DNA from: Gnetum montanum | Taxonomy: Eukaryota; Plantae; Gnetophyta | Length of the DNA: 64,000 nt | NCBI GenBank assembly: GCA_015680685.1 | Contig: MNCI01002560.1 | Span: forward strand, 509,920 to 573,919 | Reading direction: 5' to 3' | Shown here: piece after piece, positions 10,682 through 59,500 of the stretch | Layout of the letters: each line of letters starts with the position of its first letter | Numbering within the stretch: position 1 is the stretch's first letter | The notes under the pieces: generated by a model | Told to the model about the DNA's origin: nothing | The model's database searches: none | Seen by the model: the letters and a program-made list of their open reading frames with translations, nothing else | Position numbers and translations under genes: made by a program

Positions 10682-13600
10682 CATCATACATAGCTCCTTG
10701 CTTTATTAATAATTGATGAAGTTAGACAGGCCCTCTCAAAGAAATAGTACATGTAATTCAAGAGGTAAAATAGCTTCAGAACCATAAACAAGGCTATACA
10801 GAGTTACACCTATTGTAGTACAATATGTTTCTCGATATTTTCAAACTGCATGGAAAAGCTACTCATGCTACTTGCATTTACTATTATTTATCATCTTCTT
10901 AGGTAAGTTGATAATGGACTTATTACTTGCTTCTAATTTTCCATTGGCTTGAGGGTAATAAGGTGAGAAGAAAGAGTGCTTAATGTCTAGGTTGTGAAAG
11001 AAATTTTTTATTTCTTGGCTACTAAACTATGGTCTATTGTCTATGGCTATGATCATAGGTATACCAGCATGGGCTACTATATTGTCTAGGATGAATATAT
11101 AGATTTGTTCATATGTAGTATTCCTTAGGGAGATAGCCTCAACCCACTTAGTAAAGTATTTGGTTATGGTAATGATGAAACTATACCCTATGGATGAGTT
11201 AGGCATTATATGTTTAATGATATCCAACACCCATCATTGAAATAGTCATGTTATCAGAGTAGTGTGTAACTTAGTTAATGGTACATGTACTAGGTTACTA
11301 TGCCTTTGACATGTGTCACATCACTTTCTACAGCCAATAATTTTCCATATAAGGCTAGTAATAACCTAACTATCTAATCATAGTAGTCATGGCTCTAGGT
11401 TCTATATGTCCACCATAAACACCCTCATGAACCTTCTCTAGGACTATTTTGGCTTCGGCTCTATTGAAGAACTTGAATAATATACTATCATAAGATCATA
11501 GACATAGTGTATTATCGCCTAAAATGACATATAATTTTGATCATTTATGTACAAAATCCTTTTGAACAACAGTTTGGCCTTGTGAAGACTCACCATACAT
11601 AAGGTAAAACTTGATATCATCATACTGCTCCTTTATAGGAGTGGTATGAACTACAACAACAAACATATTCTCAACACTTTGCATGATGGAGATAGCACAA
11701 TTCATGGTTAAGGTGGACAACTAGCTAAAAACATTTGATGTAACACTAAGGGCTAGCATTGCAATTGCATTAGCTATGGAATTCTCATTTTGGGATACAT
11801 CTTAGATAGCAGCATCTATAAATTGTTGCAATAACGGTTTCCATAAATCATAGTAAGGTTGTAAATGTTTGGCTTTGCATGCGTAAACCTTGGTTACTTG
11901 GTTGACGAAAAGTTATGAATTTTCCTTAATTATCAAATTCTTAATTCATAGGCCATGAGCTACCATCATTCCTCTAATCAAACTTTCATACTTTGCTATG
12001 TTATTACTGCATGGAAACTCCAATCGATAGGTGAAAGATAAAATTTCACTCGATGAGAATGTTATGATGGAAAAGACACTAGCTTTGTGGTCAGTTAAAG
12101 CTCCATAAAAGTGCATGAGGCACCCATAATCCTTGAGCACTTGGCTAATGACATTGATGTGTTCATCAAGAAACTCAAGGTCAATAATTGCTTGGTCATC
12201 AATAGGTGAAATAGTAAGTTGTACAACTATAACTAGACCTTTCGTTGAGGAATAAGAGACTTAATGAAGGTCAAATTCCATTGTTATGGGTTTTCATTGG
12301 GCTATATGGATACTCTCATAAATATTGGTCATTATAGCTCTAGGTATGTTATTCTTGCAAATGACATTAACCTGGCTCCTAAAGAGGTAGTATCTCTACC
12401 TCTTTAATGAGAAGACTAGTGTTAAACAATACTTCTTCAATGAGAAGACTAGTGTTAAACAATACTTCTTCACTTTAGTATATCATGTCTCATGGGCAAC
12501 TAATGCATGGATAAGGTACTATACTAGCATCTCTACTCCATCATCACATTTTTGATAGTGTAGAAAGGTAACATACATGTTTGAGATAGAAATATAGATG
12601 TAAAATAATTTACTCTATTGTAGAGTATAGATTGTTAGTAGTTGTGCCAACTCTTGCTTAAGGATTTTAAAGGCTTCTTTGCATTGAGTCATCTGATCAT
12701 AGTGAACCCTTTTCTTAAGCAAGTATTACATGGATTGCAAATTATTTGTAAGCATAGTGATGAACATTCAAATAAATTGTAATATACCTTGTAGTCCCTA
12801 AAGCTCTTTGAGGTTAGTTGGTGCTACCAAGTTGGAGATGGCCTTAACCTTATCAAGATCAACATGTATCCTTGCTTCTAATACTACAAAGACAAGAATC
12901 TTATTAGTTTTGATACTGAAGACATAGTTCTTAGGATTAGGTCTATGTTCAAACTTAAGACATCATTTGAGAACAAGGTCTAGGTCATTAGCATGGTCAT
13001 TGGCTAGTTTGGACTTAACAACTATGTCATCTACATAATAGTTGAGGAATCCTAACATGTAGTAACTAAAGATATAAATCATGGATCTTTGATAGGTTAC
13101 CCCTAAATTCTTAAGGCCAAAATACATCATGGTATAGAAAAAGGTATCCCAAAGGTTGTGCTAAGTTAGTGCTCTAGTTTGATCCTAATTTGGTTGTAAC
13201 TCAAGAACCAATCCATAAAGGATAATAAGGCAAGGCTAGCTATAGTATCAATGAGTTAATGGATACTAGGCATAGGGAAATTGTCCTTTATCGTTGCCTT
13301 ATTTAGGTTTTAAAAATCAATTCAAATATAGATACCCTCATTTTCCTAGGGACTACCATGATGTTGGATACCCATTCCATGTAGTCAATAGCTCTAAGGA
13401 AACTAGCTTGGTATAGCTTGGTAATTTCATCACAAACTTCCATTGCTATGTTTGGTCTAATCTTGGACATTTTCAATTTAACTAGTCTAATTATAGGATC
13501 AAGTAAAATGTTGTGTTGGACTAATTTTGGATCTAAAACTAGCATATTTTCATAAGACTAGGCAAAGGCCTTATTGTTGTCTTGTAGAACCTTGGTGATG

Positions 13601-13900
13601 GCTTAAGTTTGTTGAGGTTCTAATGAGGAACATAGTTTAAGGATTTTCTCCTTACCACTATGAATTGTTACAAGAACCTCATCAAGAGAGTGTTTAGTAA
13701 TGTCACTAGCTCCTAGATCAAGATTTTTAACTAGGTTTTCAAGCCACTCTAGAAGCCTTTCAATTAAGGCTACATTGTTAATAAAAATCTTAGGCTTAAG
13801 ATCTAGATAATCAGGATCAATATATTGTTCAACATCACCATTATGCCCACTTAGGCTGAAAGGTAAGGTAATTTTGTCCAAGTGTCCAAAATTCAATCAT
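10682..13900 (-). pseudogene. pol: RT-RNaseH-aRH-integrase pseudogene of element B, truncated in the integrase C-terminal region
   Basis: ORF fragments LDPKLVQHNILLDP..., MHFYGAL...FPCSNNIAKYESLI, LDII...YFTKWVEAI; homologous to 5479-8965. Confidence 0.92.
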
Positions 13901-23298: not shown

Positions 23299-24538
23299 TG
23301 ATGAGTGGCAAGGTACCCCTACACTCCACCATACGAATATGAGCGTACACGCGCGATCCGGTCGAACTCCGCAGACTAAATGCCTTAACGCCACAAGAAA
23401 CACTTGGGGTTAATCATTCGTTGTCTTCCCAGGCTTGCTTGTATGTGTCACGGTGTATGGTTAAGCAAGTCTGAGGTATGTGATTTTTTTGGTATTTTCG
23501 GCTTATCTTCTATGCTACTAGGAGAAAGGGTTGAGAAAACTAAACTAACTCTTACTAAGATCTAACTCTAAATTAACTAGCGTCAGCATCCGTTCCCACT
23601 TACCGGACACACCCTGAACTATGCAACTGCAGCTTACCAAACGCTAATCGTTACTGGGATCGCCACACGTAACGCAAGTGCTCGAAGTGGTCGTACTGAG
23701 GCACCTATTTAGCCTACGTGTGATAAGCAGCCGATTCCTTAGCCAGCCGTACACACCCGTGGGTGCTCGTAACTAAGTCGTACTTATCACACGATCTAGC
23801 CTAGCAATGAGCAGCCGATTCCTCAACTAGCCGTACACATTAGACCCGGGAGTTACCAAGCGCAGAATCCTGGAATACGCTACTGGGTTACCAAGCATCC
23901 AATGCTCGTAATTGAGTCGTACTCATGCATTGCGTCAAGCAGCCGATTCCTTGACTAGCCGTACACGTCCGTAGACGCTCGTAATCAAGTCGTACTTGAA
24001 CGCACTAGGAAAGCAGGAAATAAAGCAATAAATGAAACCACGTGCTGCAAGGTTTATCCAAACAAGTTCGTCTTTATTGCCGTACACAACTTGGGTTCAG
24101 GTTACAAGCTGCTCGAATAAAGAGCCGTTCACTCTAGGACTCCTACTGCGGGCACATGGGGAAAAACTCTAACTCTGGAGTGATCAGTCTGCCAGAGCTT
24201 CGCTACACTAGCCAGGATTTGGAAAATAAAGGGAGTGCCACCTCTTATTTATAGATATGGCGGCGGGACGCGATATCGCGNNNNNNNNNNNNNNNNNNNN
24301 NNNNNNNNNNNNNNNNNNNNNNNNNNNNNNNNNNNNNNNNNNNNNNNNNNNNNNNNNNNNNNNNNNNNNNNNNNNNNNNNNNNNNNNNNNNNNNNNNNNN
24401 NNNNNNNNNNNNNNNNNNNNNNNNNNNNNNNNNNNNNNNNNNNNNNNNNNNNNNNNNNNNNNNNNNNTGATGCGATATCGCGACGGCCGCGATATCGCGT
24501 ACGCGATATGGCGGCCTAGTGTAAATCGCGTCTCATCA
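23299..24538 (-). repeat. 3' LTR of the young element (contains N gap 24281-24467)
   Basis: Same sequence as 30061-31260 (offset 6762); flanked by the PPT-like motif at 24539-24553. Confidence 0.96.
23580..24004 (-). ncRNA. Same four-module structured array (3' LTR copy)
   Basis: Matches 30342-30766 except for about 2 substitutions. Confidence 0.78.
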
Positions 24539-24553
24539 TACCCCCATGACTGA
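24539..24553 (-). promoter_or_regulatory. Polypurine-tract-like motif adjacent to the 3' LTR
   Basis: Minus strand TCAGTCATGGGGGTA immediately precedes the 3' LTR; same core at 25142-25154 and 26589-26601. Confidence 0.7.
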
Positions 24554-26372
24554 ATGAAAACTCGTCCTCGAGTTCCTTACAATGATATCAGGTAGGTATG
24601 GGATTATTAGGGAAAATGGAACTAATGGGATGACATGTGAACGGTCTTTATTACAAGACTTGACAAAAACTGGTGTTCATGACAACATGGGTGAACACCT
24701 TATTACAATGACATCAGGCCACAGTTGGCAGCTGAGAGAAAAGAGGAGAGAGAATAGAAGAGAAGAAGAGAGAAGAGTCTTGTTGCTGCCAACGCCTAGA
24801 TTGCGCCTTTCGTTGTCCATCTGTAAGCGCATTATCAATTCCACTCCTTGCATGCTGCTTCAGCGCTGCTCCATTCCAAGTGTCTGCTCCAGATCCATTC
24901 CGTTGTTGTATGATTGCCATCTGCACACACAACACAATCACATATTAGCAAGGGTAATTGAATTAGTAAGTAACGAATACCTTGCTGCGGTTTGGGTTCA
25001 TTGACTAAGTTGTGGTATGGCTGATATGGATCTAGGAAAATGTAGATGATGATTACCGAAGGTATAGGGGTTAGGAAGAAAAATGAAAAAATCCGGGGCT
25101 TAGGATAAAGATCGAAAAATCAGGCGAAAAATTAGGCCCCGTACCCCCATGACTAATCGCGAACCTCCGGTAGCGTTAGAATGGAAAGAGAAAAGGGGTA
25201 GGAATGATAGGTAAAAGGGAACAACTATGGCATCGATAGAAAGGATGTCCTTATGGAAATGAACAAAAATGTTAATTAATTGCAAAACGTTAAGGAAAAG
25301 AAGTTAACTAATGTTCCAAATAGGAATGTCAGTGGGTCCTCCCCAAAGCAGGCTCATGCCCTTAATGCCCTGACAATCCCACATTCAAAGAGTCCGTGGG
25401 CTCTGGGAATGTCCTTTGGAACAAGAGTTAAAGTCTTAACCGTAAGAATTTACCAAAAAGAAAACAAAGCATCAACCAAAGTATATACAATGATACAACC
25501 GGCAATGAGGTGAACAATGGAGAGAAGGATGGGAAGAAGAGAAGTGGAATGGAATCCCAAGAACAAGGTGGTGTACAGCCCCTTGTGTGTTTCATGATTA
25601 ATGTGACTTGGCGAATCTCATTCCAACTCTGGCCTCAAACCAACCACTTCCAGTGACTTCGCATCAATGCAGTTGGTTAAATCATCCACTTGGGTAACAA
25701 GGATGCAACTTCGAGAAGCCACCACCATTCCGACGAAACAACAGAGAGAATGGGAAGCGAGAAGGGCCTTAGTTAGAGGGAACACTTTGGTTCCATAACC
25801 AGTGCTTGTAGCCCAAATTTATTCCGTCTAAGGGGTGTGCTTTGAATCCTCACTTTTAGCTTTTTAGCTTTTTCTTCTTCTCTTTTTTCTGTTTTTCCAT
25901 TTTTTTTTTTCTTTTTTTTGTTTTGTGTTTTTATGCGTGGGGACCACACCATGCAAAGACTTCTTTATTTTTATTGTCTCAGCTTCCGATTATTGGGTTA
26001 CATCGGAACGGTAAGAAAACCCAAGAAGAAAACATCCAAGCACCCAAGTGAATGACCAACACAAGAGCACCAAGTTCCCTTGAAGTCACACCCTTTTCAA
26101 ATCCTTGAGTCCTTCCTTAGTTTGAGAAATGCCCAGTCACTGGTTCGTTAAAGTTCTTATTGGAAGGGAACTGTACATTTCCAAGCCAAGGGAAACCATA
26201 GACTTGATGGATGGATGGATGAAGTGATCTCATTGCCTGCCATATCAAAAGAACATACCTTAGTATCAACAATGTAACTTAAAGGTAAAAACCAAACATT
26301 AGCAATTAATGAAAAACAGTTCATCCCATCGGCCCGAACACTTATTGGGTGACGAATTTACATGATGGATGA

Positions 26373-26550
26373 CACACACACACACACACACAAAAAGATA
26401 GAAAAATATAACGATGTTGTAAAACAAAAACAAGAAAAGTTAAAGAAATTTGTAAAACAAAAATTAGAAAAGTTAAAGAAATTGTAAAACAAAAATGTGA
26501 AAAACAAAAACGTTGTAAAACAAAAATGTGTAAAACAAAAACTGAAAAAG
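26373..26550. repeat. (CA)n microsatellite followed by TGTAAAACAAAA-type A-rich repeats
   Basis: Directly visible; U-rich on the element's sense strand just after the gag-PR stop. Confidence 0.8.
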
Positions 26551-26569
26551 AACTGAGGGCCCCATATGA

Positions 26570-29500
26570 TTAGCATAGGTGGCCATCTCCCCCATGACTG
26601 AGTTGTGAGGGAGAGATCCGAAGTAGTGAGCGCCTATTTGAATTTCTAAGCAGTGCCCAACTTCTCCAAATTGATGATCTTAAATTCAGGGTTGGAAGTT
26701 GGCGACGCTCACGTTCCAGTGTATCTATGCCACGGTTGTTGGCATGAGTTGCCTCAGTTCGTTCCATGCATATTTGTTTGCCCTTATGAGAAGCTGTCAA
26801 CCACGGGGTGTCTACTACTTCTTGTGTGGTTGCTACATACAGGCATCTTTGTTGCAGAGTTTCCTGGGCACACCTGTGACATGGAGACATTTCCTCCGTG
26901 TCATCACCCGATGAATCACTGTATGTGATGCATGGAACTATCCTCTTCTCGATCTTTCCACATATGTTTATCTTGGAGATTTCCAAGGAAAGATCACGGA
27001 TCCTAAGGCATGCATCTACTGTGCTTAGCCATGCCCTTCCCATTATAATTGGGAAGTCCCCTTCGTTGTTGTTAACATCGATCACTAGGAAGTCTGCTGG
27101 GTAGGACCAACCACACACAGTGGTGATAACGTCCTCCACCAAACCCAATGGGATGGCAATGGACTGGTCTGCCAGCTCCAGTTGAATGTTGCTCTTCTTA
27201 AGTTGGGGCAGGTTCCAGGCGTGATACATCTTTCGCGAAATTAAGTTGACTCCGGAACCTGAGTCAAGAAGAGCTCGATGTGGCGCATTCCCAGCGATCT
27301 GCAAATGAATAAAGGGACTCCCAGGGTCAGTTAGTTTCCTGGGAAGGTGGCCTACCTTGATCCAGTCAGTTACGGTATGTGTTAGCATAACCGTATGCGT
27401 TACATTCCCTTGGACTGAAGGGTGCTCCGAAGTGTTAGTAGTTAGAGGCCTATACATATACCCGTCCGCTTGTTGTTGCGAGAGCCTATCCGGGCTCCTA
27501 GTTCTGAAAAAGGGTCTCCTTTTTGTACAGTTATCGCCAGAACTAGTGTCCGGTTGGATATTTACACTCTGAATATTTACAGATCTCGCGGCGTGACGTT
27601 GCTGCGGTTGGGTAGGTAATTCCCCTTGCATTGTTGGAGCAGGAGGTGTTATGGGAACTACTTGAGGAAAAGGTGCGGGTGGAGTTAGAGGATGGACAGA
27701 ATGTGGAATGTCTCCCGGAGGAGAAGGAGTCCTTCTGAAGTACTCCCGAGCGTAGTAGTGACGGCGTGGAGTGTGACTCATAGCGTCACCTGGAGAAACT
27801 GGCTGCTGCACATAATAACCATAAGGATCAGGCTGCCGGTAAGGGTATCGATGTGTTGGCTGTGGCATCCCCCATGACTGTGGGTATTGCCACTGCTGAT
27901 GTTGCTCGATGGGCTGCGGAGGTGTTCCACTTGGATAATACGTCAAGGGTTGGTGGAACTGCCTCGGGTTACCTTGTGGATAAGGTAACCTTCTGGGTGT
28001 TTGCCGTTGATTAAGTCTTGGATTTAATGCATACACCCCAGACTCCTGCAGATGTGAGATAATTGGACAACATCCCTTAGGATGGTCATAATAGCAGACC
28101 TCACATCCACCGTCATTGTCTGAATCAGAATTTTCAGCCTCATCGGAGTTAGAGATTTTTCCCTTACCCTTGTTATGTGCAGGGTTAAAGTTTCTCCGCT
28201 TGTCTTTGCTTTTATCACTACTTTGCTCATCCTTAGACTCTTCTACAATTTTCAGGACTGTTTCTATTCGTGAGTCTAAGGAATCCCACATTTGGTCTAC
28301 CTTAGCCGATACCTCCGTTGTTAACTTTTGGATCGGCACAGTTTTCCTGTTCACCAACTCTTCGAGTGGTGACTCATCCTCCTCATCACAGAATTTCACT
28401 CCCTTCTTACGAAGGGAGGGATCACGGTTGTATTCCTCCGCACTTTCTCTTTTCCGTAGCTCACCCTCTTCTTGCGCTACTTGTTCCAACAATACTTCAA
28501 CTTCATGGGCTCTTAGTTGGGAGAGTCTCCCTTGGGCGTAAGTCCCAAGAGTTCTTCTCGTTTCATTTCGTAGCCCATCCACGAGGTGGCGAAGTTGATC
28601 CCGCTTAGCGTACCCATGGCCCGGGCAACGATGTAGCAATGTGTAGTAACGGGCCATGGCAGCATCCAAGGATTCATGAGCTCCTTGTTTCCAGCCTTGG
28701 ATCTGCTTACGCAAGTTAGACACTCTGGAGTACGTTTGATATTTGTTGTTGAACAATTCGAGCATCGTACTCCACCTCCTGATGGTTTCCGGTTCTAAGG
28801 ACCGGTACCAGCTTTCTGCTTCTTTAGTGAGTGTCCTTGGGAACAACTTGAGTTTCTGCCACTCATTGTCTATGTTCTGCAAGGCACAGGCGTCGTGGAA
28901 TGCCTGTAAATGATGTTGAGGATCAGCGTTGTATCCCCCTTCAAAACGTGGGATATTATTTATATCCAAACGCTTGATCCTACTGTCTTTCAAATGCCTT
29001 GTGGGAATCCTAACTGCCTCTCTAATGTCAAGCATACTTCGGGTTGCGAATAGGGGTTCGTCATGATCATCTCTTTCATGACGTCTGTGATGTCTACGTT
29101 GTGGTTCCCTATTCTCCCTACGTCCTTGCCCTTGTCCTAACTCCTCTCGACCTTCTTGTCGAGGCATTTCATCTCTTTTACCTTTACTCTCCGCGTTATG
29201 CTCATGGTGGCTGCGCCCAGATGTGGAAGGAGAGGGTGAATGATGTGATGAAGGGGAAGAAGAAGGGGATCCATCACCATGGTGATGTTTCTTGCCTTCT
29301 CTTCGGCTGCTTCGGCCCCGATCGTTGTGACGATCAACGAGTCCGTCATTAGTGCGAGTGATTGTTCCTGCCGTGAACAGCTGGTGCTCACGGGGATCAG
29401 AGCCTGGAATATGTATCGTTGATCTAAGGCCCTGATGCCTAACCTCTTCACCAGAGTGAGGAGGAGGAACATCATTTTCTAAGAAACCCGTTGTGAGGGG

Positions 29501-29914
29501 TTCCTCGTCTCCTATTTCACTAATGACGTGGGAAACCTTGCCCTTCAGTAGTGAATGTTGGCTCTCCTGCCTTGCATCCCGAATACGTTGGGCTTTTGTG
29601 GGTTGATAATCCCTCAGAGTGTAATCATCCGCAACGTATTCAGTAATCAGCTCTTGCATGCCATACCGTACCAAGGCACGGAAAAGCATGTTGGAAGCAG
29701 ATCGATCTGGGGGTAACACGATGTTACCTTGCATGTCTCTCCACCGCAGTTGCTCATCTTGATGGAAAACAAAGGTAAAATCCGGCACATACTCATCGGG
29801 ATGAGTATATGTGACCTTAGATTGTTGAGGACATGGTTGATCTCGGTTATGCGTATGATGCTGACTTTCTCCTGTATTGTCCTTAGGTGAGTTGATTTCG
29901 TGAGAAGAAGCCAT
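26570..29914 (-). CDS. gag: Gag-aspartic protease polyprotein, 1114 aa, uninterrupted
   Basis: Retrotransposon-gag core KLKLFPRTLTKEAESWYRSL...WSTMLELFNNKY; zinc-knuckle variant CEVCYYDHPKGCC; protease ALLDSGSGVNLI...IIMGRAWL; no RT YxDD, RNaseH or integrase motifs. Confidence 0.95.
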   Translation of the reverse strand: MASSHEINSPKDNTGESQHHTHNRDQPCPQQSKVTYTHPDEYVPDFTFVFHQDEQLRWRDMQGNIVLPPDRSASNMLFRALVRYGMQELITEYVADDYTLRDYQPTKAQRIRDARQESQHSLLKGKVSHVISEIGDEEPLTTGFLENDVPPPHSGEEVRHQGLRSTIHIPGSDPREHQLFTAGTITRTNDGLVDRHNDRGRSSRREGKKHHHGDGSPSSSPSSHHSPSPSTSGRSHHEHNAESKGKRDEMPRQEGREELGQGQGRRENREPQRRHHRRHERDDHDEPLFATRSMLDIREAVRIPTRHLKDSRIKRLDINNIPRFEGGYNADPQHHLQAFHDACALQNIDNEWQKLKLFPRTLTKEAESWYRSLEPETIRRWSTMLELFNNKYQTYSRVSNLRKQIQGWKQGAHESLDAAMARYYTLLHRCPGHGYAKRDQLRHLVDGLRNETRRTLGTYAQGRLSQLRAHEVEVLLEQVAQEEGELRKRESAEEYNRDPSLRKKGVKFCDEEDESPLEELVNRKTVPIQKLTTEVSAKVDQMWDSLDSRIETVLKIVEESKDEQSSDKSKDKRRNFNPAHNKGKGKISNSDEAENSDSDNDGGCEVCYYDHPKGCCPIISHLQESGVYALNPRLNQRQTPRRLPYPQGNPRQFHQPLTYYPSGTPPQPIEQHQQWQYPQSWGMPQPTHRYPYRQPDPYGYYVQQPVSPGDAMSHTPRRHYYAREYFRRTPSPPGDIPHSVHPLTPPAPFPQVVPITPPAPTMQGELPTQPQQRHAARSVNIQSVNIQPDTSSGDNCTKRRPFFRTRSPDRLSQQQADGYMYRPLTTNTSEHPSVQGNVTHTVMLTHTVTDWIKVGHLPRKLTDPGSPFIHLQIAGNAPHRALLDSGSGVNLISRKMYHAWNLPQLKKSNIQLELADQSIAIPLGLVEDVITTVCGWSYPADFLVIDVNNNEGDFPIIMGRAWLSTVDACLRIRDLSLEISKINICGKIEKRIVPCITYSDSSGDDTEEMSPCHRCAQETLQQRCLYVATTQEVVDTPWLTASHKGKQICMERTEATHANNRGIDTLERERRQLPTLNLRSSIWRSWALLRNSNRRSLLRISPSQLSHGGDGHLC

Positions 29915-30041
29915 TTCTATTGGTGTGCTAACTTCACCGTTATTTATTGTTCTTGATTAACTGATTAACCCTAAGGTTCGTTTTAAGCTCACAACGATGT
30001 GAGTGATATCCCTTATGTTAAATTGGCGAAAAAACACTTAG

Positions 30042-30059
30042 TCCCCGGCAACGGCGCCA
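30042..30059 (-). promoter_or_regulatory. Primer-binding site complementary to the tRNA-Asp 3' end (Athila-type)
   Basis: Minus strand reads TGGCGCCGTTGCCGGGGA one base after the 5' LTR, complementary to plant tRNA-Asp ...TCCCCGGCAACGGCGCCA. Confidence 0.93.
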
Positions 30060-30341
30060 ATGATGAGTGGCGAGGTACCCCTACACTCCACCATACGAAT
30101 ACGAGCGTACACGCGCGATCCGGTCGAACTCCGCAGACTAAATGCCTTAACGCCACAAGAAACACTTGGGGTTAATCGTTCGTTGTCTTCCCAGGCTTGC
30201 TTGTATGTGTCACGGTGTATGGTTAAGCAAGTCTGAGGTATGTGATTTTTTTGGTATTTTCGGCTTATCTTCTATGCTACCAGGAGAAAGGGTTGAGAAA
30301 ACTAAACTAACTCTAACTAAGATCTAAGTCTAAATTAACTA

Positions 30342-30766
30342 GCGTCAGCATCCGTTCCCACTTGCCGGACACACCCTGAACTATGCAACTGCAGCTTACC
30401 AAACGCTAATCGTTACTGGGATCGCCACACGTAACGCAAGTGCTCGAAGTGGTCGTACTGAGGCACCTATTTAGCCTACGTGTGATAAGCAGCCGATTCC
30501 TTAGCCAGCCGTACACACCCGTGGGTGCTCGTAACTAAGTCGTACTTATCACACGATCTAGCCTAGCAATGAGCAGCCGATTCCTCAACTAGCCGTACAC
30601 ATTAGACCCGGGAGTTACCAAGCGCAGAATCCTGGAATACGCTACTGGGTTACCAAGCATCCAATGCTCGTAATTGAGTCGTACTCATGCATTGCGTCAA
30701 GCAGCCGATTCCTTGACTAGCTGTACACGTCCGTAGACGCTCGTAATCAAGTCGTACTTGAACGCA
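30342..30766 (-). ncRNA. Array of four structured cis-RNA modules in U5/5' leader (5' LTR copy)
   Basis: Units 30342-30464, 30479-30555, 30566-30690 and 30693-30766 share conserved loop sequences while stems differ by compensatory changes; G-U pairs and cUACGg/cCACGg loops favour the minus strand. Confidence 0.8.
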
Positions 30767-30835
30767 CTAGGAAAGCAGGAAATAAAAGCAATAAATGAAA
30801 CCACGTGCTGCAAGGTTTATCCAAACAAGTTCGTC

Positions 30836-30841
30836 TTTATT
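30836..30841 (-). terminator. Putative LTR polyadenylation signal
   Basis: Minus-strand AATAAA ~170 nt downstream of the TATA box, followed by a U-rich tract (~30778-30800). Confidence 0.5.
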
Positions 30842-31008
30842 GCGGTACACAACTTGGGTTTAGGTTACAAGCTGCTCGAATAAAGAGCCCTTCACTCTAG
30901 GACTCCTACTGCGGGCACATGGGGAAAAACTCTAACTCTGGAGTGATCAATCTGCCAGAGCTTCGCTACACTAGCCAGGATTTGGAAAATAAAGGGAGTG
31001 CCGCCTCT

Positions 31009-31017
31009 TATTTATAG
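31009..31017 (-). promoter_or_regulatory. TATA box of the young element LTR
   Basis: Minus strand CTATAAATA just downstream of the GC-rich U3 array; present in both LTRs. Confidence 0.75.
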
Positions 31018-31031
31018 ATATGGCGGTGGGA

Positions 31032-31238
31032 CGCGATATTGCGTACGCGATATCGCAGGAGAAGATGCGATATCACGTACGCAATATCGCATGTGATGCG
31101 ATATCGCGACGGCCGCGATATCGCGTACGCGATATCGCGTACGCGATATCGCAGGAGAAGACGCGATATCGCGTACGCAATATCGCATGTGATGCGATAT
31201 CGCGACGGCCACGATATCGCGTACGCGATATCGCGGCC
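31032..31238. repeat. CpG-dense palindromic array (GCGATATCGCGTAC units) in U3
   Basis: Repeated gcgatatcgc/gcgtacgc palindromes with a duplicated ~82-bp block; the other LTR is an N gap here but shows the same flanking units. Confidence 0.92.
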
Positions 31239-31859
31239 TAGTGTAAATCGCGTCTCATCAGCTAGTGTTAGCCAAAATAGTTTATTGTTTGAACAATTTA
31301 TTTGGCTATGGTTATGATATTATGGACATTTTAACTTGAACTTTAATTTTAAATTTCAAATTTTAATTCTTTTATGACATTATACCATTATGGTTTTGTT
31401 TATGTTATGGTTCTATGTCATAATCTATGTTTTGGCTACATTGGACAAAATTGGTTGTCATGTGATAAAAGGTAATAAAGTTATAAACTAAAAGATAAAT
31501 GAGATATAAGATTGTTTGCTAGTTTAAGGCCATGTCAGGCCATGTGGTATTTTCTAGTTTAACGCCATAGTAGGTTGTATGATACTTAAAAGAAAATGAT
31601 TTTTTTTAGATATTTCATGTTTTATAAAGTTTTATGGATTTTTTTAGTTTTAGAATTTTTATGACATTTTTAGATATTTTGAACAAATAAGAAACAAGCT
31701 TCAATTGTGATAGAAAAAAATTAAACTCTAAGCTATAGGAAAATAAAGAAGTCAATGTAAAGTAAAACAAGGTTGCAAATACAAAGGTAAATAAAGTAGA
31801 AACTAGGCTATCAAGCTATAAGTACATATCGTTATAGTGTTGTAAGCACATAGGGTGTA

Positions 31860-35344: not shown

Positions 35345-37694
35345 ATTTATGGTTGAAAATTCAAGACTTTTCCCCTTAACGCTTAAAGACTACCTACACT
35401 CTATTATAGTAGGGTCCTTGAGGTCATATAACCTTATGTCCTATTGGCTAAAGCCATTGTTAATGAATGTAAAAGGTAGTTTGGTTGATTTTTGAAAAGA
35501 CATGTTAAAATTTTGAGTTTTTTTTTGAGTTTTTACTATTTTTGGTAGAAAATGTAGCAAGTAGGGAGATCTGCTAGCATAGTATACCAAAAATAGAAAG
35601 GAAATAGAAGATAGTTGTCAAATGATAACAAAAGAAAATTTAAAATACCTTTACTTACTAGATAGAAAATGGACATCATAGTAGGAACTACACTAAATGG
35701 AATGATAGAAAATGGAATAACAAAAAATGGAATGATAGAAAATGGGATGATGGAAAATGGAATGATAGAAAATGAAATGACAAAAAATGGAATGGATGTT
35801 ATAGTAGATGAGAAATCTATATTAGATAGGAAATTAGTAGCAAAACCCAACTCTACTACAGCTAATGTTGGTATGATGGAATGAAAGATAGAAATGTAGT
35901 AGGCTTGGTATTTCAGAAAATGGCTCAAACTAGTTTATGGTCAAGAATTTGGGTGGAGGCCCTCCTTCTAGTACTAGAAAACTATTGGAGTTAGAAATCC
36001 TAGTTACTGGAATGGAAAATTAAAAGATGCTAGTGTTGAAACAATTTTAACCCTAAATCACAAGGGCCTCCAAAAAATGGGATTCAGAGTATCCTAGATG
36101 ATCTTGCTAATCATTGAGGGACTTACAAAGTGTAAATGAGAGAAGTTTTAGAAATTTAAATGTGATCATAGATGAAACTGAAAAGCAAAAATGAAAACAT
36201 AAATGGAAAAGTAAATGGAAATAAGAACAAAAATAGGAACGGAAATGACCTACTAAAAATGAAAATGGAAACATAATACTAAAAATAGAAATTGAAATAG
36301 AATCATAGTTATAGAAATAAGTGTAGAAATAGAAATAGAAATACAAAATTACATAAAATGAATAATAAAATTTATAAAAAGTATAAATGAATTGGATTTC
36401 ATGATGTACAAGTTTATTCTAAGGGCATAGAAAATTACTTGCCAACACTTGAACTTCATTTGAGAAGGCTCTACTCCATCATCTAGTTCTTCCCAAGTTT
36501 CATTTTGTAAAACTTTCCATCAGTTTCCTCAAATTCTGAAACATGTGAATGGGATTTGATTTACACTTTTAGTGTAATGGTAGTTATATTGAGGTATCTA
36601 CACCTAGCATAGTACTATTTTTTGCAACTGGAAGTCTAGTTGGATTACAAGGGTTGTAATGGGCTTTTATTGTAAGAAAATGAAAAAAAAATGCTATTGC
36701 TACCAAAAGGTTTTTAAAATGCCAAGAGTTTCAGACCTAAAAATGGTATTGACATTGGAAATTCATAGGTTTATGATTACCATTTTTGGGACTACCATTG
36801 ATTGTTGATAGATTACCATTGATTGTGGATTGCAATAGTCATATACTAGTAGTGTAGTTGGTCATCTACTATCAATGTAGTTGCTAGTTGTGGTAAGTCT
36901 AGAATGGACTATAGCCACAAAATCCTTCCATTTACTATGAATAGTAAAAAAACATTTGTGACTACACTAGCCCCATTATTATTTTGGTGGTTTTGGTTAA
37001 TGATTACATACTGTCAATGTAGTTGCCATTTATGGTAAGTCTGGAATGGACTACAGACACAAAATCCATCCATTTACTATAAATATTAAATACACTTTTG
37101 TGACTATGTTAACCCCATTCCTACTACTTTGGCATTAGTGGACTATGTTCAGGTTGGTGAAAAATGGGAAAGTGGTGGAAAATGTGGAAAAAGTTAGAAA
37201 CTACAAAAATGTTGGAATCCGTTGGAAAGTATAATGCATGGTGAAGAACACTGTCTACATTGGCCATTGATGACTTGGAGTGACTATGCTAGCTATTGTT
37301 GAAAAATTGAAAATTTCAACAATCCCAACATTTCACTTTTGCTAGGTCTTAGTGCTAACTATGCTAGCTACTATGATTTCTAAAAGTGTAGTTACAATGA
37401 CTATTGAAAATGGCTCTAGCATAGTTTGGGTTATACCCCTAGAAAAAATCATGGAAATGCCATTTTTAATGATTAAAAAGGTGTTTTAGGCCTTCCCAAG
37501 TCCAAATATGGATATAGGGCACCTTTTTCTACCTGGGAAGCAAGGAAATAACAACTTTGGAAGCATTTTTAGGCATTAGAAAGTTGAAGTATGAAATATT
37601 GTAGCTGAAAGACTACACATCTTCCATTTACAATGAATACTTTTCCCATGTTGGGAAATGAAGGTTACAACATGAAATTTTTGTGGTGTTTTAA
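35345..37694 (-). repeat. 5' LTR of element B
   Basis: Outer end matches the start of A's LTR; lies directly upstream of gag; contains GACTAYRYTAG motifs and a ~140-bp internal duplication. Inner boundary approximate. Confidence 0.6.
35693..35795. repeat. 15-bp tandem repeat (AAAATGGAATGATAG) inside LTR B
   Basis: About 6 imperfect tandem copies directly visible. Confidence 0.85.
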
Positions 37695-39134: not shown

Positions 39135-41900
39135 ATGGTTCATTATTTGTGATAATGGCTAGAGGTAGGTCAAATTTGGATACTATGTTATATATGATGA
39201 AATTGTAGACTTATTGTGAAGTTTTTTTTCTTAAAGGAATGGCTTCAATTCATTTTTTGAAGTACTCAATTGCAATGATAATAAAGCTATGCCTCACCAA
39301 ATACTTAGGAGATATAGATCCAACAATGTTGGTTTCCCATTATTGAAATAACAATATAATTTGAGTAGTGTGTAACTCAGTTGGTGGTACATATATAATG
39401 TTTTTATGTCATTGAAAATGTCACAAGTCTTTTATGTATTATATGCAATTGCTTTACATATAAGGCTAGCGGTATCTTGGGTATCTAATCTTCGTAGGCA
39501 TGGCTCTAGATCTTATATGTCCTCCACATATTCCATCATGTATCTATGTTAGGACTATATAGGCTTTTGCTATGCTCAGGCAGATTAACAATACACCATG
39601 GTAGGACCTGTGACATAATGTGTTATTAGCCATAATAACATATAATTTGAATTATTTGCATACAACATGATTTTGGGAGATAGTTATGTTTTGTGGAGGT
39701 TCATCATGCATGAGGTAGAACTTGATATTATCATACCATTCATGTTGGGAAATATTCCTTTTGGTTGCTACAAAAGTATTTTTAGTATGTTTCATGATGG
39801 AATTAGTACAATTTTTTGTCATGGAAGGTAATTTGCTAAATACATCAGCCATCATACTTAAGGCTAATGTAGCTGTGACATCAATGAGTGAAATTTCAGC
39901 TTGGGGAATATGTTGAATGTTGAAATCTATAAATTGTTGAATAAGCATTTTGTCCATGTCACAATAAGATAATAAGTGTTTGCCTTTATAGGCATAGATC
40001 TTGGTTACTTAGCTAATCACTAATTAAAATCACTCTTCATAATTAAATGTATAAATCTATAGTTACAAGCTATTATCAGTTCCTTGATTAACCCTTCATA
40101 TTCCACCATGTTTTTGATACATGGAAACTTTAAATGATAGGTAAATGATTAGATTTCATCAAAGGGATGTATGATGATGATAATGGCATTAGCTTGGTGT
40201 GTAGTTAAAGCTTTGTCAAAGTGCATAATGACTTCATAACCTTTGGATAAATTGTTGATAATTTTGACATGCTCATTAGGGAATTTGAGATCTATGGCTA
40301 TGATGTCTTCAATCAAAGAAGTAGTTAGCTAAGCGATTTTAGCTTGAACTTTAGGTAAGGATTTTTATACATGGGATATGTTAAAATTGGCTATTATGGC
40401 TTTCCATCAAGATATTTAGCTACTCTCATAGATGTTGAATGTAATAACTCTTAATACATTATCTTTACATATGATGTTAACTTATGCGTACTATCTCCAT
40501 TTTCTAATGAAAAGACTAAGGCTAAGCAATGTTCTTCAACTTCATTGTATCAAGGCTCATAGGCTACTAATTCATTGCTCAAGTAGTAAATTAGTAGCTC
40601 TACTCCATCATCTTATTTTTGATAGAGCAACGAACCTATGGATGTGTTAGAGATTTCAAGATATATGAAGAATGATTTATCCTTTTGGGATGGCTAAACA
40701 GTTGGCAACTTAGCTAACTATTACTTAATATTATCATAGGTTTCTTATCATTGATCTATCTATTCATAATGAACTCTATTCTTAAGTAAATGTTGCATGG
40801 GTTTTTACTTACCTATAAGTTTTAAGATGAACCTATGAATAATCTATAATCTACCTTATAAATCACGTAGTTCCTTAAGGTTACTAGGTATTGATAAGTT
40901 GCTTATGGCCTTAACCTTATTTGGATTGCCACATATTACTGATCTAGAGACTACAAATTTAAACATATATTTAGTTTTAACACTAAAGAAATACTTCTTG
41001 GGATTGAGTCAAAGTTCATATTTGAGACAATGTTAAAGGACTAAGTTTAAGTCATGTGCATGATCGTTTGCTATCTTATATTTTAGCGTGTTATCATAAA
41101 CATAGTCATTGAGTAGATCCAACATATAGTCATTAAAGATATCGGTTGTAGATCTTTGGTATGTTGCACCTATGTTATTTAGATTAAAATACATCATATT
41201 ATAATAAAAGATTCCTCAAGTGATCATGAAGGATAAAAACACATGACCAAGAGTAGTATTAGTATCAATGAGTTGATTGATGCTAGGAAAGGGAAAGTCA
41301 TCCTTAATGTTTGCTTTTTCAAGAGCATAAAAATCAATACATATGTAAATACTTATATTCTTCTTGGAAACTACCACTATGTTGGATACCTAGTCTGTGT
41401 AGTTGATAGCTCTAATGAAACCTGCTTTGTAGAACCTCTTGATCTCGTCTTGAACTACTAATGCTAAATTTGGTCTAATATTAGGAATCTTGTTTTAATA
41501 GGTTTGATGCCAAGGTTAAGTATGATGTTATGTTAAACTAAGGATGGATCGAGTCTAGGAATGTCCTTAGAGGATGATGTAAAGGCTTTAATGTTATCCT
41601 ATAAGGTCTTCGTAATGTCTTGTGTAGGTTGAGGTTCAAGTGAAGAACTTAGTTTCAACGTTCAATTGCTACTATGATGGGTTGTAATGAAAACATCCAC
41701 AAGGGAATCCTCTATGATGTCTTTGGCCTTTAGTTCAAGAGTCTTGACTATGTAATTAGACCATTCTAAGATTTTCTCTATTGAGGCTATGTGGTCAAAA
41801 AGGCTTCTATGCTTACAATTTAGACATTTAAGGTCAATTGGTTGAATAGCATTATCCAAAGGTCCATTTTAGCTTAAAGGCAAGTCAAATTATTTCTGCA
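39135..41900 (-). pseudogene. pol: Element C: third RT-RH-aRH-INT pseudogene of the same family, integrase truncated
   Basis: Same pre-RT leader (DHIASIEKILEW..IVKTLEL) and aRH C-terminus (QQFIDFNIQHIP) as A and B. Confidence 0.88.
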
Positions 41901-47127: not shown

Positions 47128-50100
47128 TGTAAGACCCTAAAGTTAGAAGTACTAGTAGATATTATAGATGGCAACTCAATTAAAAGTAGGAGGGATATAG
47201 CTAAAAAATTAGAATCAAAATAGGAATAAATAATACTCTAAAAAAGTATGAAGTAACATGAAGCAAACAACCAAATAAGCCAATTAAGATAAATGGGAAA
47301 AAATAAAAGGAAGTAGTAAAATATCCTTTGAGATAAGTCAATTCACCTTGTCTAGTGTCATACTCTAGTTAAAAGGTGATAGCATAGAGAATAAGTATAA
47401 GAAATTGCTACTCCACCCATAGACACTCTTCTTATGGAAGGAGGTTCTTAAGGGATGCTTAAAATTGTTAGCCTTATGCATTCCTCCAACCATAAGGTTC
47501 TTGTGGAAGTGTGGCCTTGCTCATGATTGAAAGTAGTTGTGGGACCCTTTGCTCATATTGGTAATTTCTTTATGTTTTTCTTCTCTCTTTCCTTTTTTAA
47601 AAACCATTCTTTACTTTCTATTTTTTTTAAGGAAGCGGATAATAAGGCCTTCTTCAATGATGAGGTTCTTGTAAAAGAAAAAGCTATTTTTGAATCTATT
47701 TAGTGGGTTGCTCATTGGGATGCTGATTAAGTTTCTCATGTTGGTGTCACCTTTATGGCTATTCCAAATATGATACATCCTTTTCTCATTATTGAATTAT
47801 CCAAGAAATTCATTACTAGAACCATTCATTAATGTTCAAGAATCAAACCTAGTTATTATTCTTATGATTCATGAAACTTAGAAAACTTGAAGAATGTTAC
47901 ACCCCACCCAAAGCTAGTAGGTATGGTCATATGCTTATAATGTAGACATTACATGTGGAGTCCTAGTGGGTATTTAGGAACACATTAATGCATTTTATAT
48001 GTTATGTGGCCTCATTTTTGTTATGATTATGATGTATTTAGATGCTTAACTAACATGATTATGTACACTAGCCCTATGGGATGTGTTAGATAGGTGATGT
48101 TGCTAGTAGGTGTGGGACTAGGGTACAAGAGCACGAATTTGGTATAATTTTATGCTTTATGTATTATTTTGGTATGTAGGAATTTGTATTATAGCACTAT
48201 GTTGTGTGATGTTTAGACATGGTTTTGCCATGTGAATGTGTAGAGCGTATGATAAGGATCTCATAGGTTCAAATGGATTTTGATTTGGAGTCCTGACATG
48301 TCTATTACGCAGGTTTAAATTTTATGGTGTTAGTGGCAGAGAAGAAAAATAAAAATAACTTATGAAAATACAATTTCGTAAAAATAATATAAATAAATAA
48401 TTCAATTTAAAAACATAAAAGAAACCAAACAGTAAAGTAACACTAGTACGTGATATGCACCCATGAGAGAAAGAACAAAGGTTGCATGTAGGAATACACT
48501 TAAAAGCATAGTTTTTGTTTTTTATGTTTCTTTTACTTCTCACCACCTACCAAACTTGGGTTTTGGTTTCTATTTTTTTTCTATTCATAGAAATAGAAAT
48601 GCACAAGAGTTTGTTTTCTTCCATTTTCTTTCTACTCTCTTCCTTTCTTGGATTCTGAGCCTTGTGGAAACATTTTGCTTATTATAAACTTGGATATGGA
48701 ATTATTGTGGTCATATCTACATGTGTGCAAAACTTGTTGGGAGTGAAATGGAGTCTTGCTGGATTTTTGAGGATTTTCTCCTTGTTGAGGGCTTTCTACA
48801 CCACTAATTTGGATTGGTGGGTTGTCTTTGCCTTTCCCTTGCATTTTTGTGCTAGATTAGTGTATATGATTATGTGATGTAGGCATGTGAGATGGATAGC
48901 TCATGGATTGAGCTCGGACATGTTATTTTATCTATTTTCCCAAAATTGTCTAATTTTGGTTATAGATTATCAATGAATATATATGAAATGTATGGGATGA
49001 TGTGGACATGTGAACTATAATATGTGGTGTTGATGAGCCTCATATGATATGCTATTTGTGGGGCCTCGTAGTATGTGAGTATTTTATTTTGGGCATTCCA
49101 AATATTATTTACATATTATTTTATTAATCAAACTTTTAACATGCATAACTTTGCCTCTAAGAGTTCAATTTAGGTAAAATTAGTATAATTGGGATCACCT
49201 TGGAAAGTACTTTGTAATCACAGAATTAGTTTTCTCTTTTGGCATATCTCATTTTGAAGGTTATTATACTGGTCATTGTATGGAAGTACATCTCTTTTGA
49301 GAACTATGGTGTTTTTTTGACATATCAAGGTCTTCATGGTGTTTTTTTGCATTGTGGTATTATCTTCATGAGAGGTGGATCTATGTGATTATGTTTTTTT
49401 TTGTGTGTTGTGCTTATGACATGTGTTGGCTTAAGTTAGCTAGACTGTTTACATGTTTTTGTGATAATGCTTATGATGGTTGTTGGCAGGTGGTGCTAGC
49501 ATCAAGGTGTGGACTAGTTGGTGATGAGGCATTCTGGAGGTCATATGGATTGACCGCCATTGTGATGCATTAGTGAGGCTCATATCTTAGGCTTCATCTT
49601 GGGAGTGGGAGACCATAGGTGTTTTCATCCCTATGGTTGGTCCATTGCATAGGTGTGTTCATCCCTATTTCCAATCCTCCAGAAGGCTAGTGGTTGTGGG
49701 TCATAGGTTGATAGACCCTAGCACTAGTTGGATAAATAAAAGACTAATAAAAGACCTAGAAGCAATGGCTATTATGAGTACTCATGACAATGTTTCACAT
49801 GCTACACTGAGCATTGATATGCTAGCATCCACATGAGCTATGTATGTGATGGTATTGGGTTGTGAGTCATACTATTGAGAATAGGCGTTTTGTTGGAATT
49901 ATGATTGTTTGGATCATGGACTATTTATAGTATATCATGAGTATGATGACCTGGGCATGATAGATGATGTCAAACTATGGCTTTATCTATGCTTGTATAT
50001 CATATGTTAGCTTCATAGGTGATATTGTGTGTGCTGTTTTGAGCATGCATAAGAATAATAGTGTTGTAGGTTGCCTTGTACCCCACTCCTCTCCTCTTGT

Positions 50101-51974: not shown

Positions 51975-54900
51975 TGTTGGCGACCGTTTGGGACGTGACC
52001 GCCAACGAGTGTCCTCGAATAGGATTTTGGTGCCTACTGGTCTCTAGCAACACCAAGGCCCAGATACCTCCAAATAAACTCAGTAGTTAATGTGAGTATG
52101 TTTGTATGCTATTGCGGTGTGTGGTTGTGAGAAATGTAACGATTGCATTGTGTAACCTACAAATGAATTACTTTAAAGAGATTCAACCAACTTTGCCAAG
52201 TACTGTGAGTTGTTGAAAATTTCCTATTTTGTTCAACTACCTAGTCTATGAGGTCCTTATAATACCTACTTGTAACAAATAAAATTTTGCAAAAACATTT
52301 GAGCACAAATCTGCAATCTACTCCTAATTTTCCCCAGAGAAAGAGATAGTTCCACAAGAAAACTAGAAATAGAGCAAGATTCGATGGAAATAAGCAGAAA
52401 AGAAAAGAAAGCAGATTTGTGTAGACCTCAAATATTTAAACAAGGTAAAATGACACGAGTAAACACTTCGCAATAAAGCTATCCCAAATTCAATATCTAC
52501 CAATTTTTCAAACTTCCAAGGCTCAAACAAGCAATATCTTCAAGACAATCCTACTATGCTACCAAAAATTGCTGCATAAACTACCACGTACGAGACTCCA
52601 TTTTGACTAGATAATAGATGTCAACGATTGCATTCAAATAGAACCTTTAAAAGACTTGACAATTTCTGATTGAAATACCACAAGAATTCACTTTAAAGAT
52701 AAAAAGAAGCTATTCTGGTCCCATCAAAATACCAAAGATTTTCTGAACCCTCTCGACTACTGAATTGTTCAACGGCGTGACTATAAACAGAGGCTCTCTT
52801 ACAACAATCCCAATAAAAGTTACCACATGTTGCACAATAACAAAATTTACTACTAAAATGCTCTTAAGGCTTTTAAACCCAAGCACTTCTATGGCAAAAT
52901 TTTTATAGAAATTTCTATCGGGCAACAAGAACAATAAGAGCAATCTAGAAGTCCCAAAATTACTTGCCAAGGATGATACTATCTAAACCACTACCTAAAC
53001 AATTTAAACAAAACAAAAAATGAAATGCATAACTCACAGGACCATGACAAAGAGGATGCAATCTTTACTCTAGCAAGCCATCTTGCAAGAAATCGTTCAC
53101 AATTTCTTCTTTACAAAGCTCTTCTCAAGACCTCAAGTGTGTCTCCAAGTGAGAGCCCAAGTGCTAACTAGTAGCCTTCCAAAGTGTGATCTAAAAGTGT
53201 GATGTATGAGACCCCAATGTTGATTATATGTCCTAATGTTATGTGAAGTCCCAATAGCTTTCTTGAATCTGATTTGATTTAACCATAATGCTGATTGTAA
53301 ATAATCAATCCAATTTCTTGGGTTCCCATCCATAGATTTCTTGATATAAGAAATAAGCTTTTTATTGGTAGATTCTGCTAGGCCATTTCCTTGAGGATGA
53401 TAATTTGATGAGGAAAATAAGAAAATGGATTTTGCAGATGCCCATCTGATAAACTCTTCAGATTTGAAGGCGGGTCCATTGTCTGACACTAACACTTTGG
53501 GTAGACTGAATCTACTTAGAATGTGGTCTTCTAGGAACTTAATCACATTTGATGTTGAACTTCCTCTTAGAGCCTTTGATTCAGACCATTTAGTGAAATA
53601 ATTAGTAGCTGTGAGACTAAACTTGTGTCCAGCTCTTGAAGGAGTAATTGTACCAATAAAATCCAAACCCCATTGCTAAAATGGTCTATCTGCAACTATT
53701 GGTTTTAAAGGGGCTCTAGCCCTTTTAATCTTAGGCCCATGAACTTGACATTTATAACATCTTTGAATCTTTGAACTAATGTCTTGATACATGGAAGGCC
53801 AGTAATATCTCTATCGAAGTATATGTTGCATAGTTGATTTATGGGATTCATAAAATAGATTCAAATGATCATGAAATTGTTCCAAGATGAAACTAATTTG
53901 ATCATTATGAACACATTCCAATAAAACTCCTTAAAAATTCTTTCTGTATAATATACCATCTTTAACAAAAAATCTTCGTGCTCTTTTGAAGTTGACTTGC
54001 AGTTAAATTATTTGGTATTTTCCTAATAGTAAGAAATTTGAGAATATCATCATACCAATTCTCTTCATGTGTGTCAAGTGTATAAACTTCACTTTCTTTA
54101 GTCATTAACTTGGCTAGTCCCATTCCCTTAATTGTCTTGCATATTTCCAATGAAAATCTGAAACTTTGCAACTTAATAAGCCATTTTCCTCTTTTCAATC
54201 CAATCTCATTTTGGGATAGGAATCGCTTGACTGCAGGTTCCATTGGCATAATGTGAACTAATGAACTCTCCAAATAATATTTAAAATGCTGAAGTGCTTT
54301 GATGACTGCGAAAGCTTGTTTCTCTAAGTCTGAGTAATTTAACTCTGAACCTTTCAACTAACACCCAAAAAATCCAATTGGTTCATCTTGACCTTCACTA
54401 TCCTTTTGTGTTAAAACAGTAGTGATAGAATCATTTGAAGTAAATGAGTATAACCAAAAATCTTATTTAAGTCTAGGCTTTACCAAATATGGAGCCTCTT
54501 GTATAGCTGTTTTAATTTCTGATAACGCTCTTTCTGACTCTGATGTTTTCTCTACTTGGATATCCTTTTTAAGCATACACATCAAAGGTTTAGTAATTTC
54601 GATAAATCCGGGGATGAACTTTTTCACAAAGTTTATCTTCCCAAAGAATGATCTAAGAGATTTCTTACTTATGGGATGCTCAATATTCTGTACTGCTTGA
54701 ATTCAGGAATTGTCTATGGAAATTCCTTCTTGACATATCACGTGTCCTAATAAACTTCTGGATTTAACCTTGAAGATACACTTCTTAGGATTTAATGAAA
54801 TACTAAATTCATGACATCTGTCAAAAACTTGCTAGAGATGATTAATATGATCTTCTTTCTTCTTTGAGAATATCGTAATATTGTCCAAATAAACCATCAC

Positions 54901-59355: not shown

Positions 59356-59500
59356 CACTATGAGCTTTTTACACAACCTAATTTAAATAAACACCTTAGA
59401 GCTTGTTACACAACCTAATTTTACTTCCAATTAGATAATTTTTCTAAATTTTCCAAGTAAGGCCAAATGATCATAATGCTTTTATTTTGCTTTATGCAAG

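Follow-up and report, generated by a model that had tools for sequence, protein, structure and literature searches.

In retroviruses the packaging signal psi is found mostly downstream of the primer-binding site. The way in which LTR retrotransposons choose their own RNA is poorly defined even for Ty1 and Ty3, whose packaging determinants map to the 5' end and whose packaging sequences are not precisely defined (PMC4974528). The CaMV leader exposes a packaging signal bound by the coat protein, in the form of a purine-rich sequence at the tip of a single large hairpin (PMC5902531). Other retroviral RNAs carry repeated sites within a fold: Rev dimers have been modelled on bulged sites of the HIV-1 RRE that are about one helical turn apart and on one face (PMC4488727), and the MPMV CTE is a single 3' UTR element, a hairpin with two matching internal loops of 16 nt that bind Nxf1 (PMC4377836). 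Plant LTRs do hold ribozymes, in the retrozymes, which are non-coding elements of 1-1.5 kb that have 4-bp duplications and LTRs of 350 bp with one hammerhead each (PMC6765202). Regarding the Athila lineage, our literature search found no described RNA signal for the plant elements; LTR RNA structure is not described in the available parts of the Athila and TR-GAG-like papers (bioRxiv 10.64898/2026.03.20.713144, PMC13570524), and the terms 'secondary structure', 'hairpin' and 'packaging' have no match in the available text of the latter.

The present analysis deals with a 64-kb window (the whole stretch of DNA that was analysed) containing an Athila-like element whose two LTRs each carry an array of five predicted hairpin units, U0 to U4 (Table 1). 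The array is apparently an undescribed RNA motif in a known kind of place. Its fold is very probably a selected sense-strand RNA structure, and the best explanation, which we hold tentatively and at somewhat less than an even chance, is that by analogy with the systems mentioned above the R/U5 array could act as a multivalent Gag-docking platform for packaging and trafficking of the full-length RNA.

Table 1. Positions of the element, its LTR and leader features and the five units of the array in the 64-kb window
Feature	Positions	Strand	Details	Basis
Whole LTR retroelement	23299..31260	minus	about 7.96 kb, Athila-like, gag-protease only	sequence analysis
5' LTR	30061..31260	minus	1200 nt, TGAT...ATCA ends	
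3' LTR	23299..24538	minus	second U0-U4 copy at about 24140-23580; N gap 24281-24467	
Single long ORF (gag-protease)	26570..29914	minus	open frame of 1128 codons	translation, Pfam
Primer-binding site	30042..30059	minus	begins TGGCGCCGTTGCC, Athila tRNA-Asp/Asn type; directly after 5' LTR	
Palindromic tandem repeats of the LTR U3 region	31031..31245	.	CGTACG/GATATC-rich	
TATA-like box	31009..31016	minus		sequence
Poly(A) signal	30841-30836	minus	AATAAA/AAUAAA, within U0	sequence
First of seven upstream AUG ORFs	30906..30920	minus	4 codons, ends at foot of U0	
U0	30820..30903	minus	fifth unit, two-fold symmetric, two head-to-head core sites	descriptor and fold
U1	30693..30765	minus	short; cUACGg cap; two core sites with 11-nt spacing	
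U2	30569..30688	minus	long unit, two core sites 11 nt apart, insert hairpin	
U3 unit (third module)	30479..30555	minus	short, two sites 11 nt apart, cCACGg cap	
U4	30345..30461	minus	long and diverged; P2 of 5 bp; core sites with 9-nt spacing	

The locus shares with Ty1, Ty3 and CaMV a structured 5' region of the genomic RNA, which in those systems is bound by Gag or coat protein (PMC4974528, PMC5902531), and with CaMV a long leader with short upstream ORFs (PMC5902531). In contrast, no modular repeat of one site is described in the available parts of those two papers. As in the HIV-1 RRE there are several bulged, purine-containing helix sites, and the candidate partner has an Arg-rich stretch (PMC4488727); the RRE sites, however, are unlike each other and lie in env, whereas here one site is used ten times in R/U5. 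The likeness to the MPMV CTE is architectural only: U0 is two-fold and U1-U4 are tandem, recalling one hairpin with two matching internal loops (PMC4377836), whereas the loops of the array are smaller, have another sequence, lie in a 5' leader and are five-fold repeated. By sequence or position the array is neither a CTE nor an RRE, and by analogy it may work like them. The retrozymes are also non-autonomous plant LTR elements with a conserved RNA structure in the LTR (PMC6765202). Retrozyme identity was rejected, as the Rfam scans at E up to 10 gave no hammerhead family, the element is 7.96 kb long and coding, and its duplication has 5 bp. An ENE-type triple helix was rejected because the loops are not U-rich, and a 5S rRNA-derived (Cassandra-like) domain had no Rfam match.

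No Rfam family matched U1-U4 at E up to 10, and elsewhere only sub-threshold scores for miRNAs, sRNAs and unrelated cis-elements were obtained. The statements of the preliminary description that the motif is not a hammerhead and is undescribed agree with these scans. No description of the motif was found in the literature searched, outside of which lie subscription papers, supplements and repeat libraries, and the loop strings led to unrelated papers only.

The element is bounded by a 5-bp target-site duplication (31265-31261 and 23298-23294). Its single long ORF matches Retrotrans_gag (Pfam, E 4e-12) and, weakly, an aspartyl protease (E 0.005; 17.9 bits, below the Pfam cut-off of 24.3 bits), and the domain search found no RT, RNase H or integrase in it. 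It thus presents the features of non-autonomous TR-GAG-like elements: two LTRs, a primer-binding site, a target-site duplication and GAG with a weak PROT, without RT/RH/INT. The primer site, the TGAT...ATCA ends, the 5-bp duplication and the gag-protease-only content are shared with Athila and TR-GAG-like elements (bioRxiv 10.64898/2026.03.20.713144, PMC13570524), and a primer site of the TGGCGCCGTTGCC type is the Athila feature used by ATHILAfinder (bioRxiv 10.64898/2026.03.20.713144). The LTR ends in CATCA with a 1-nt spacer, and the published Athila seeds available for comparison are specific to Brassicaceae, where the commonest end is TATCA plus 3-6 nt (bioRxiv 10.64898/2026.03.20.713144). 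The element, which has no pol domains for placement, is best called Athila-like and non-autonomous.

The Gag protein of the element (P0001) has, before its capsid domain, a stretch rich in Arg and His (aa 279-298), and it also has a zinc-knuckle-like CX2CX3HX3-4C motif at aa 618. A search with the gag domain found three unnamed relatives, two of which, P0002 and P0004 (75% and 68% identity), would mark sister families of the element judging from their sequences; in P0002 an Arg/His-rich stretch also precedes the capsid domain (7 Arg per 20 aa, against 8 here). The named relatives are angiosperm retrotransposon proteins, from which the Gag differs considerably (25-33% identity). The full-length protein search with the ORF returned no relatives, and no Gag-related loci were found in viral contigs.

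Between the two LTRs, 15 substitutions and one indel were counted in 981 compared bases. The LTR still has 82.5 CG per kb, against 3.5 per kb elsewhere in the window, and therefore the insertion is young, as had been claimed at first. The family is abundant: at least half of the words of the LTR were present in 18 of 24 runs, among the runs listed, and 85,000-135,000 contig records matched the LTR in each of four DNA runs (four organism labels, three studies), a depth that is not a copy number. In two RNA-seq runs of one study the fractions of LTR words were 0.27 and 0.18, figures for the whole LTR and not specific to the array. The element itself may already be catalogued in repeat libraries. 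Its 3' non-coding region of 2 kb (24539-26570, minus strand) contains T-rich tandem repeats of 31-33 nt right after the stop codon and, near 24920, a short frame preceded by AG; it yielded no long env-like ORF, and no separate Rev-like ORF was recognised by eye among its ORFs of at least 40 aa.

The LTR U3 region holds near-perfect, very CpG-rich palindromes with a period of 96 nt, whose matching site in the 3' LTR falls in the assembly gap. They are probably a promoter array, separate from the RNA modules, to judge from their sequence. A MIR4371 score of 48.8 bits (cut-off 110) lies on these palindromes and was discarded as a generic hairpin match. Transcription of the region is presumed from the positions of the TATA-like box and AATAAA, and the start is predicted 25-35 nt downstream of the former, near 30985. 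R would then extend to about 30810 and include U0, and U1-U4 would lie in U5, once per genomic RNA. From the predicted start, the leader to the gag AUG (29914) measures about 1.07 kb and contains seven upstream AUGs; U1-U4 sit 290-700 nt ahead of the primer site. The motif had been placed downstream of the poly(A) signal, which is right for U1-U4; U0, in contrast, contains AAUAAA in the 3' strand of its 8-bp stem, between its two core sites. A predicted helix joins the end of U5 to the primer site and the sequence beside it (30150-30035, minus strand), similarly to the retroviral U5-leader stem.

The four units of the preliminary description were found on the minus strand where it had put them, and a second set lies in the 3' LTR; the pairings that it quoted for P1, P2 and P3 are correct. 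A descriptor of the form paired stem-CGAG-paired stem ... TGTACGGC-like-paired stem gave ten matches in the window with up to two mismatches, five per LTR and all on the minus strand; with one mismatch it gave none in 486 kb of control loci, both strands included. A covariance model built from U1 and the U3 unit recovered only LTR units: those two, part of U2 and, weakly, U0, but not U4. In the 3' LTR copy, either strand of U0 reads UG(U/A)ACGGC-8 bp-CGA(G/A)C, and the copy folds accordingly. The layout of U1-U4 is short-long-short-long, the U3 unit being the most stable of the units. The inserts of U2 and U4 share a predicted CCA-GU-ARCG/CGYU-UGG-UAA hairpin with a GU bulge (30648-30620 and 30419-30396, minus strand), and their GGTAA words also resemble splice donors; the best local alignment of the two inserts was reached by 8 of 2000 shuffles, but in another register.

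All five units have in common a core site, in which CGA faces G(U/A)A(U)CG and a bulge of two nucleotides (GC or GA). There are two per unit and ten per LTR, instead of the approximately eight sub-modules counted at first, since U0 lies upstream of the coordinates then reported. In the 3' LTR, the string of the second strand of the core occurs at all ten module positions and at one stray place, against 0.68 expected and a maximum of five in 2000 shuffles. The 5' LTR has the exact string at seven module positions; the other three differ from the 3' LTR, and in the tabulated DNA run the core letter makes up 91-96% of the depth there. The near invariance of the loops that had been claimed is mostly borne out, the exceptions being U4 (UGUCCGGY and GGAACGGAUG) and a private change of the 5' LTR in the top loop of U1 (30722). 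The 11 nt between the CGA cores of U1, U2 and the U3 unit correspond to about one helical turn (9 nt in U4). The same core is found head to tail in U1-U4 and head to head in U0, on stems of 5, 7 and 8 bp, and therefore it is the site, rather than a spacing or a DNA string, that is kept.

The internal loops of the modules measure 4+8 and 8+13 nt, and the invariant pairs within them give no covariation. The inner pairing may be a bulged helix or an S-turn. The lower loop of U1-U4 has AGUA and GAA strands that would suit a sarcin/ricin-type S-turn, with which Watson-Crick pairing competes. An S-turn in the top loop would require U-G at the tHH position, for which AA, AC and GA are named (PMC8450098).

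The compensatory change of the stems is confirmed by the counts, which were made from fixed coordinates because MAFFT misaligned the long units. In the variable stems all 64 cells are paired, and 12 of the 14 columns change on both sides: P2 is paired in 33 of 33 cells (six of seven columns two-sided), P3 in 20 of 20 (three of four) and P1 in 11 of 11 (three of three). The pairs of P1 are correct as first given, but only two or three variable ones are shared by U1, U2 and U4 outside the invariant AG/CU. The column permutation products (1e-6, 3e-3 and 7e-3) are overstated and are not probabilities, since the units have a common origin and themselves served to define the structure. Moreover, the P2 strands of U1, U2 and the U3 unit cross-pair at 5-7 of 7 positions if G-U is allowed, and therefore the covariation in these strands is less strong than it seems. 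The variable stems contain six G-U cells, which, like the cUACGg and cCACGg caps, favour the sense strand.

A control independent of the units was provided by unrelated sequences in which chance has produced the same three loop strings, namely six viral-contig matches and at least 120 prokaryote-genome matches. None of these 126 carriers, among the matches listed, has a fully paired P2, as opposed to eight of eight parses in the window; on average 40% of their P2 positions are paired, and none has the fourth loop. One scan of viral contigs with the loop pattern gave no match and another gave the six mentioned, all failing the stem test; in prokaryote genomes none of the matches listed passed it, and none of 66 pattern matches in metagenome contigs had the upstream half and the stems. 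These viral, metagenome and prokaryote scans revealed no second family or autonomous partner with the motif.

Alleles were mapped for 18 of the 20 rows in 30342-30900, among 40 listed of 295 difference rows, two rows in a U-rich linker being left out. Among the common alleles of the four DNA runs in the rows listed, five keep a pair by a one-sided change, and two lie on both sides of one U1 pair with shares of 0.44 and 0.48, which would turn G-C into A-U if they are linked. Three break a model pair (30439, 30479 and 30660), two of them at helix ends; the others are three private loop letters, the last bulge letter of U4 and four positions in linkers or the terminal loop.

Thermodynamic prediction gave results that depend on the unit. 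Sense folds beat their complements by 7-10 kcal/mol for U1, U2 and the U3 unit. Single-stranded DNA structure is disfavoured, as the first strand reverse-transcribed is the antisense one, in which G-U becomes A-C and which folds less well. U1 and the U3 unit are more stable than shuffles (z -3.1 and -3.7); U2 and U4 (z -0.64 and +0.95) and the 441-nt region as a whole (z -0.46) are not. With a pairing span of 150 nt the P2 probability is 0.77-0.99 in U1, U2 and the U3 unit; that of U0 is marginal (0.01-0.23 at 150 nt, 0.00-0.63 over spans of 150-200 nt). In unrestricted folding it falls to 0.00-0.03 in U2, 0.07-0.80 in U1 and 0.00-0.43 in U0. The model helices of U4 have a probability of about zero in all 16 folding runs, and its model fold lies 2.9 kcal/mol above the minimum. 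U0-U2 often fail in long-range folding, and their formation would therefore need the help of a protein or of folding during transcription.

Ten conserved copies of a short site, lying in both orientations on variable stems and in pairs about one turn apart, suggest multivalent protein binding, and Gag is the candidate reader because the Gag-protease is the only protein of the element and has both the Arg/His-rich stretch and the knuckle. In the proposed mechanism, the RNA would start upstream of U0 and end soon after AAUAAA, so that each genomic RNA would carry U1-U4 a single time, at its 5' end. The fixed loop letters would be read by a protein in a groove widened by the bulge, the 11-nt spacing would place two sites on one helix face for an oligomer, and the reader would be Gag, by means of the Arg/His-rich stretch or the zinc knuckle. 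Repetition of the site could give an edge in particle assembly to an element that borrows RT and integrase, and binding at U0 could also keep AAUAAA paired, damping early polyadenylation. Against this Gag-docking reading, a signal in U5 would also sit on solo-LTR and read-through RNAs, unlike retroviral psi; U4 is not predicted to fold in this way, long-range folding weakens U0-U2, and the motif is seen in one family only.

The array contains one site ten times, in different stem contexts, within a single LTR, which provides its own comparative proof and a test object of 75 nt, the U3 unit. If Gag binds it, a major lineage of plant retrotransposons would have a packaging signal defined by sequence, and there would be a reason why a pol-less family became abundant. 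If a host factor does so, it would point to an unknown plant export or translation route. With either partner, the array would be a new RNA motif for Rfam.

A host protein is the reader in the first rival explanation, which we consider unlikely, although it stands before the other rivals. The sites would bind an initiation factor or RNA-binding protein, and ribosomes would reach gag by internal entry or by a CaMV-like shunt past the seven upstream AUGs. The first upstream ORF, of 4 codons, stops at the foot of U0, and a short ORF ending at the foot of a stem is the take-off layout of a shunt (PMC5902531); however, the predicted fold is without the strong long-range stem joining the ends of the leader that a shunt needs, and shunting would rely on the stability of stems, not on ten fixed loop sites.

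It is also unlikely, and placed just behind, that the array is a host-bound element of RNA processing or export, which would hide the AAUAAA of the 5' LTR, steer splicing or export unspliced RNA like a CTE. Against it, the two LTRs have identical R and U5 regions, and the array by itself could not distinguish the 5' signal from that at the 3' end; P2 of U0 is also only marginal in local folding. In its favour are the location of AAUAAA in the U0 stem between two core sites, the donor-like GGTAA of the U2 and U4 inserts together with acceptor-like tracts ending at 30767 and 30277, and the two symmetric loops of U0, which recall the two identical loops of the CTE (PMC4377836).

A bolder form of the Gag-docking reading is a Rev/RRE-like LTR switch, in which the Arg/His arm of Gag would read ten phased sites, U0 would clamp the poly(A) signal and the U5 sites would nucleate the capsid. 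We regard it as decidedly unlikely. If it were true, one protein-RNA code would couple read-through, export and packaging, and a pol-less element would out-compete its helper.

It is improbable that the array serves dimerisation, with the units of two RNA copies pairing across, or that it is a relic of tandem duplication with little function. The cross-pairing of the P2 strands of U1-U3 units, the self-complementary GUAC and the decayed look of U4 fit such a proposal, but diverged stems with fixed loops are the reverse of neutral decay. Moreover, two of the caps are extra-stable tetraloops, which make poor kissing loops.

Very improbable is a DNA array of SBP/SPL transcription-factor sites, for which the RNA fold would be secondary or share the job. 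GTAC, the SBP core (PMC12026679), occurs 16 times in the LTR, eight of them in the module loops and six in the U3-region repeats, and GTACG reaches 10.8 per kb in the LTR versus 0.04 per kb in the rest of the window. Part of this enrichment, nevertheless, reflects the loss of CpG in older DNA, to which the CG densities given above attest. The proposal leaves the paired covarying spacers, the G-U pairs and the tetraloops without explanation, the lower site of U0 (GAAC) and the top site of U4 (GTCC) keep the fold motif without GTAC, and as a sole explanation it is hard to square with the absence of paired stems in the 126 loop carriers (matches listed).

The least probable proposal, a new class of self-cleaving or ligating ribozyme in which each unit would fold through a pseudoknot or S-turn, has in its favour the near-fixed loops on covarying stems, the precedent of the retrozymes and the presumed sarcin/ricin likeness of the AGUA and GAA strands, but the Rfam scans at E up to 10 gave no ribozyme family, what is conserved is a site of 10-12 nt reused in two orientations instead of a 50-nt core, and four or five cuts between R and the primer site would sever R and destroy strand transfer.

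Other repeats were observed in the window. A broken Gypsy element (52344-58623, minus strand), without the RNA motif, has terminal repeats 99% alike over 229 nt and seems to have inserted between the members of an older repeat pair (48843-49565 and 58688-59363). It encodes, in this order, a stretch resembling RNase H (WELYFDG..., weak RVT_3), RT and integrase, and the order RNase H-like-RT-integrase has been tied to TatI/TatII of club-mosses and gymnosperms (PMC6317226); the host therefore probably belongs to one of these groups. There is also a large inverted repeat (5741-8431 / 10927-13638), with arms of about 2.7 kb that are 73-77% alike and parts that recur at 39336-40625, as well as minisatellites with periods of 15 nt and 29 nt at 35680-35794 and 63331-63545.
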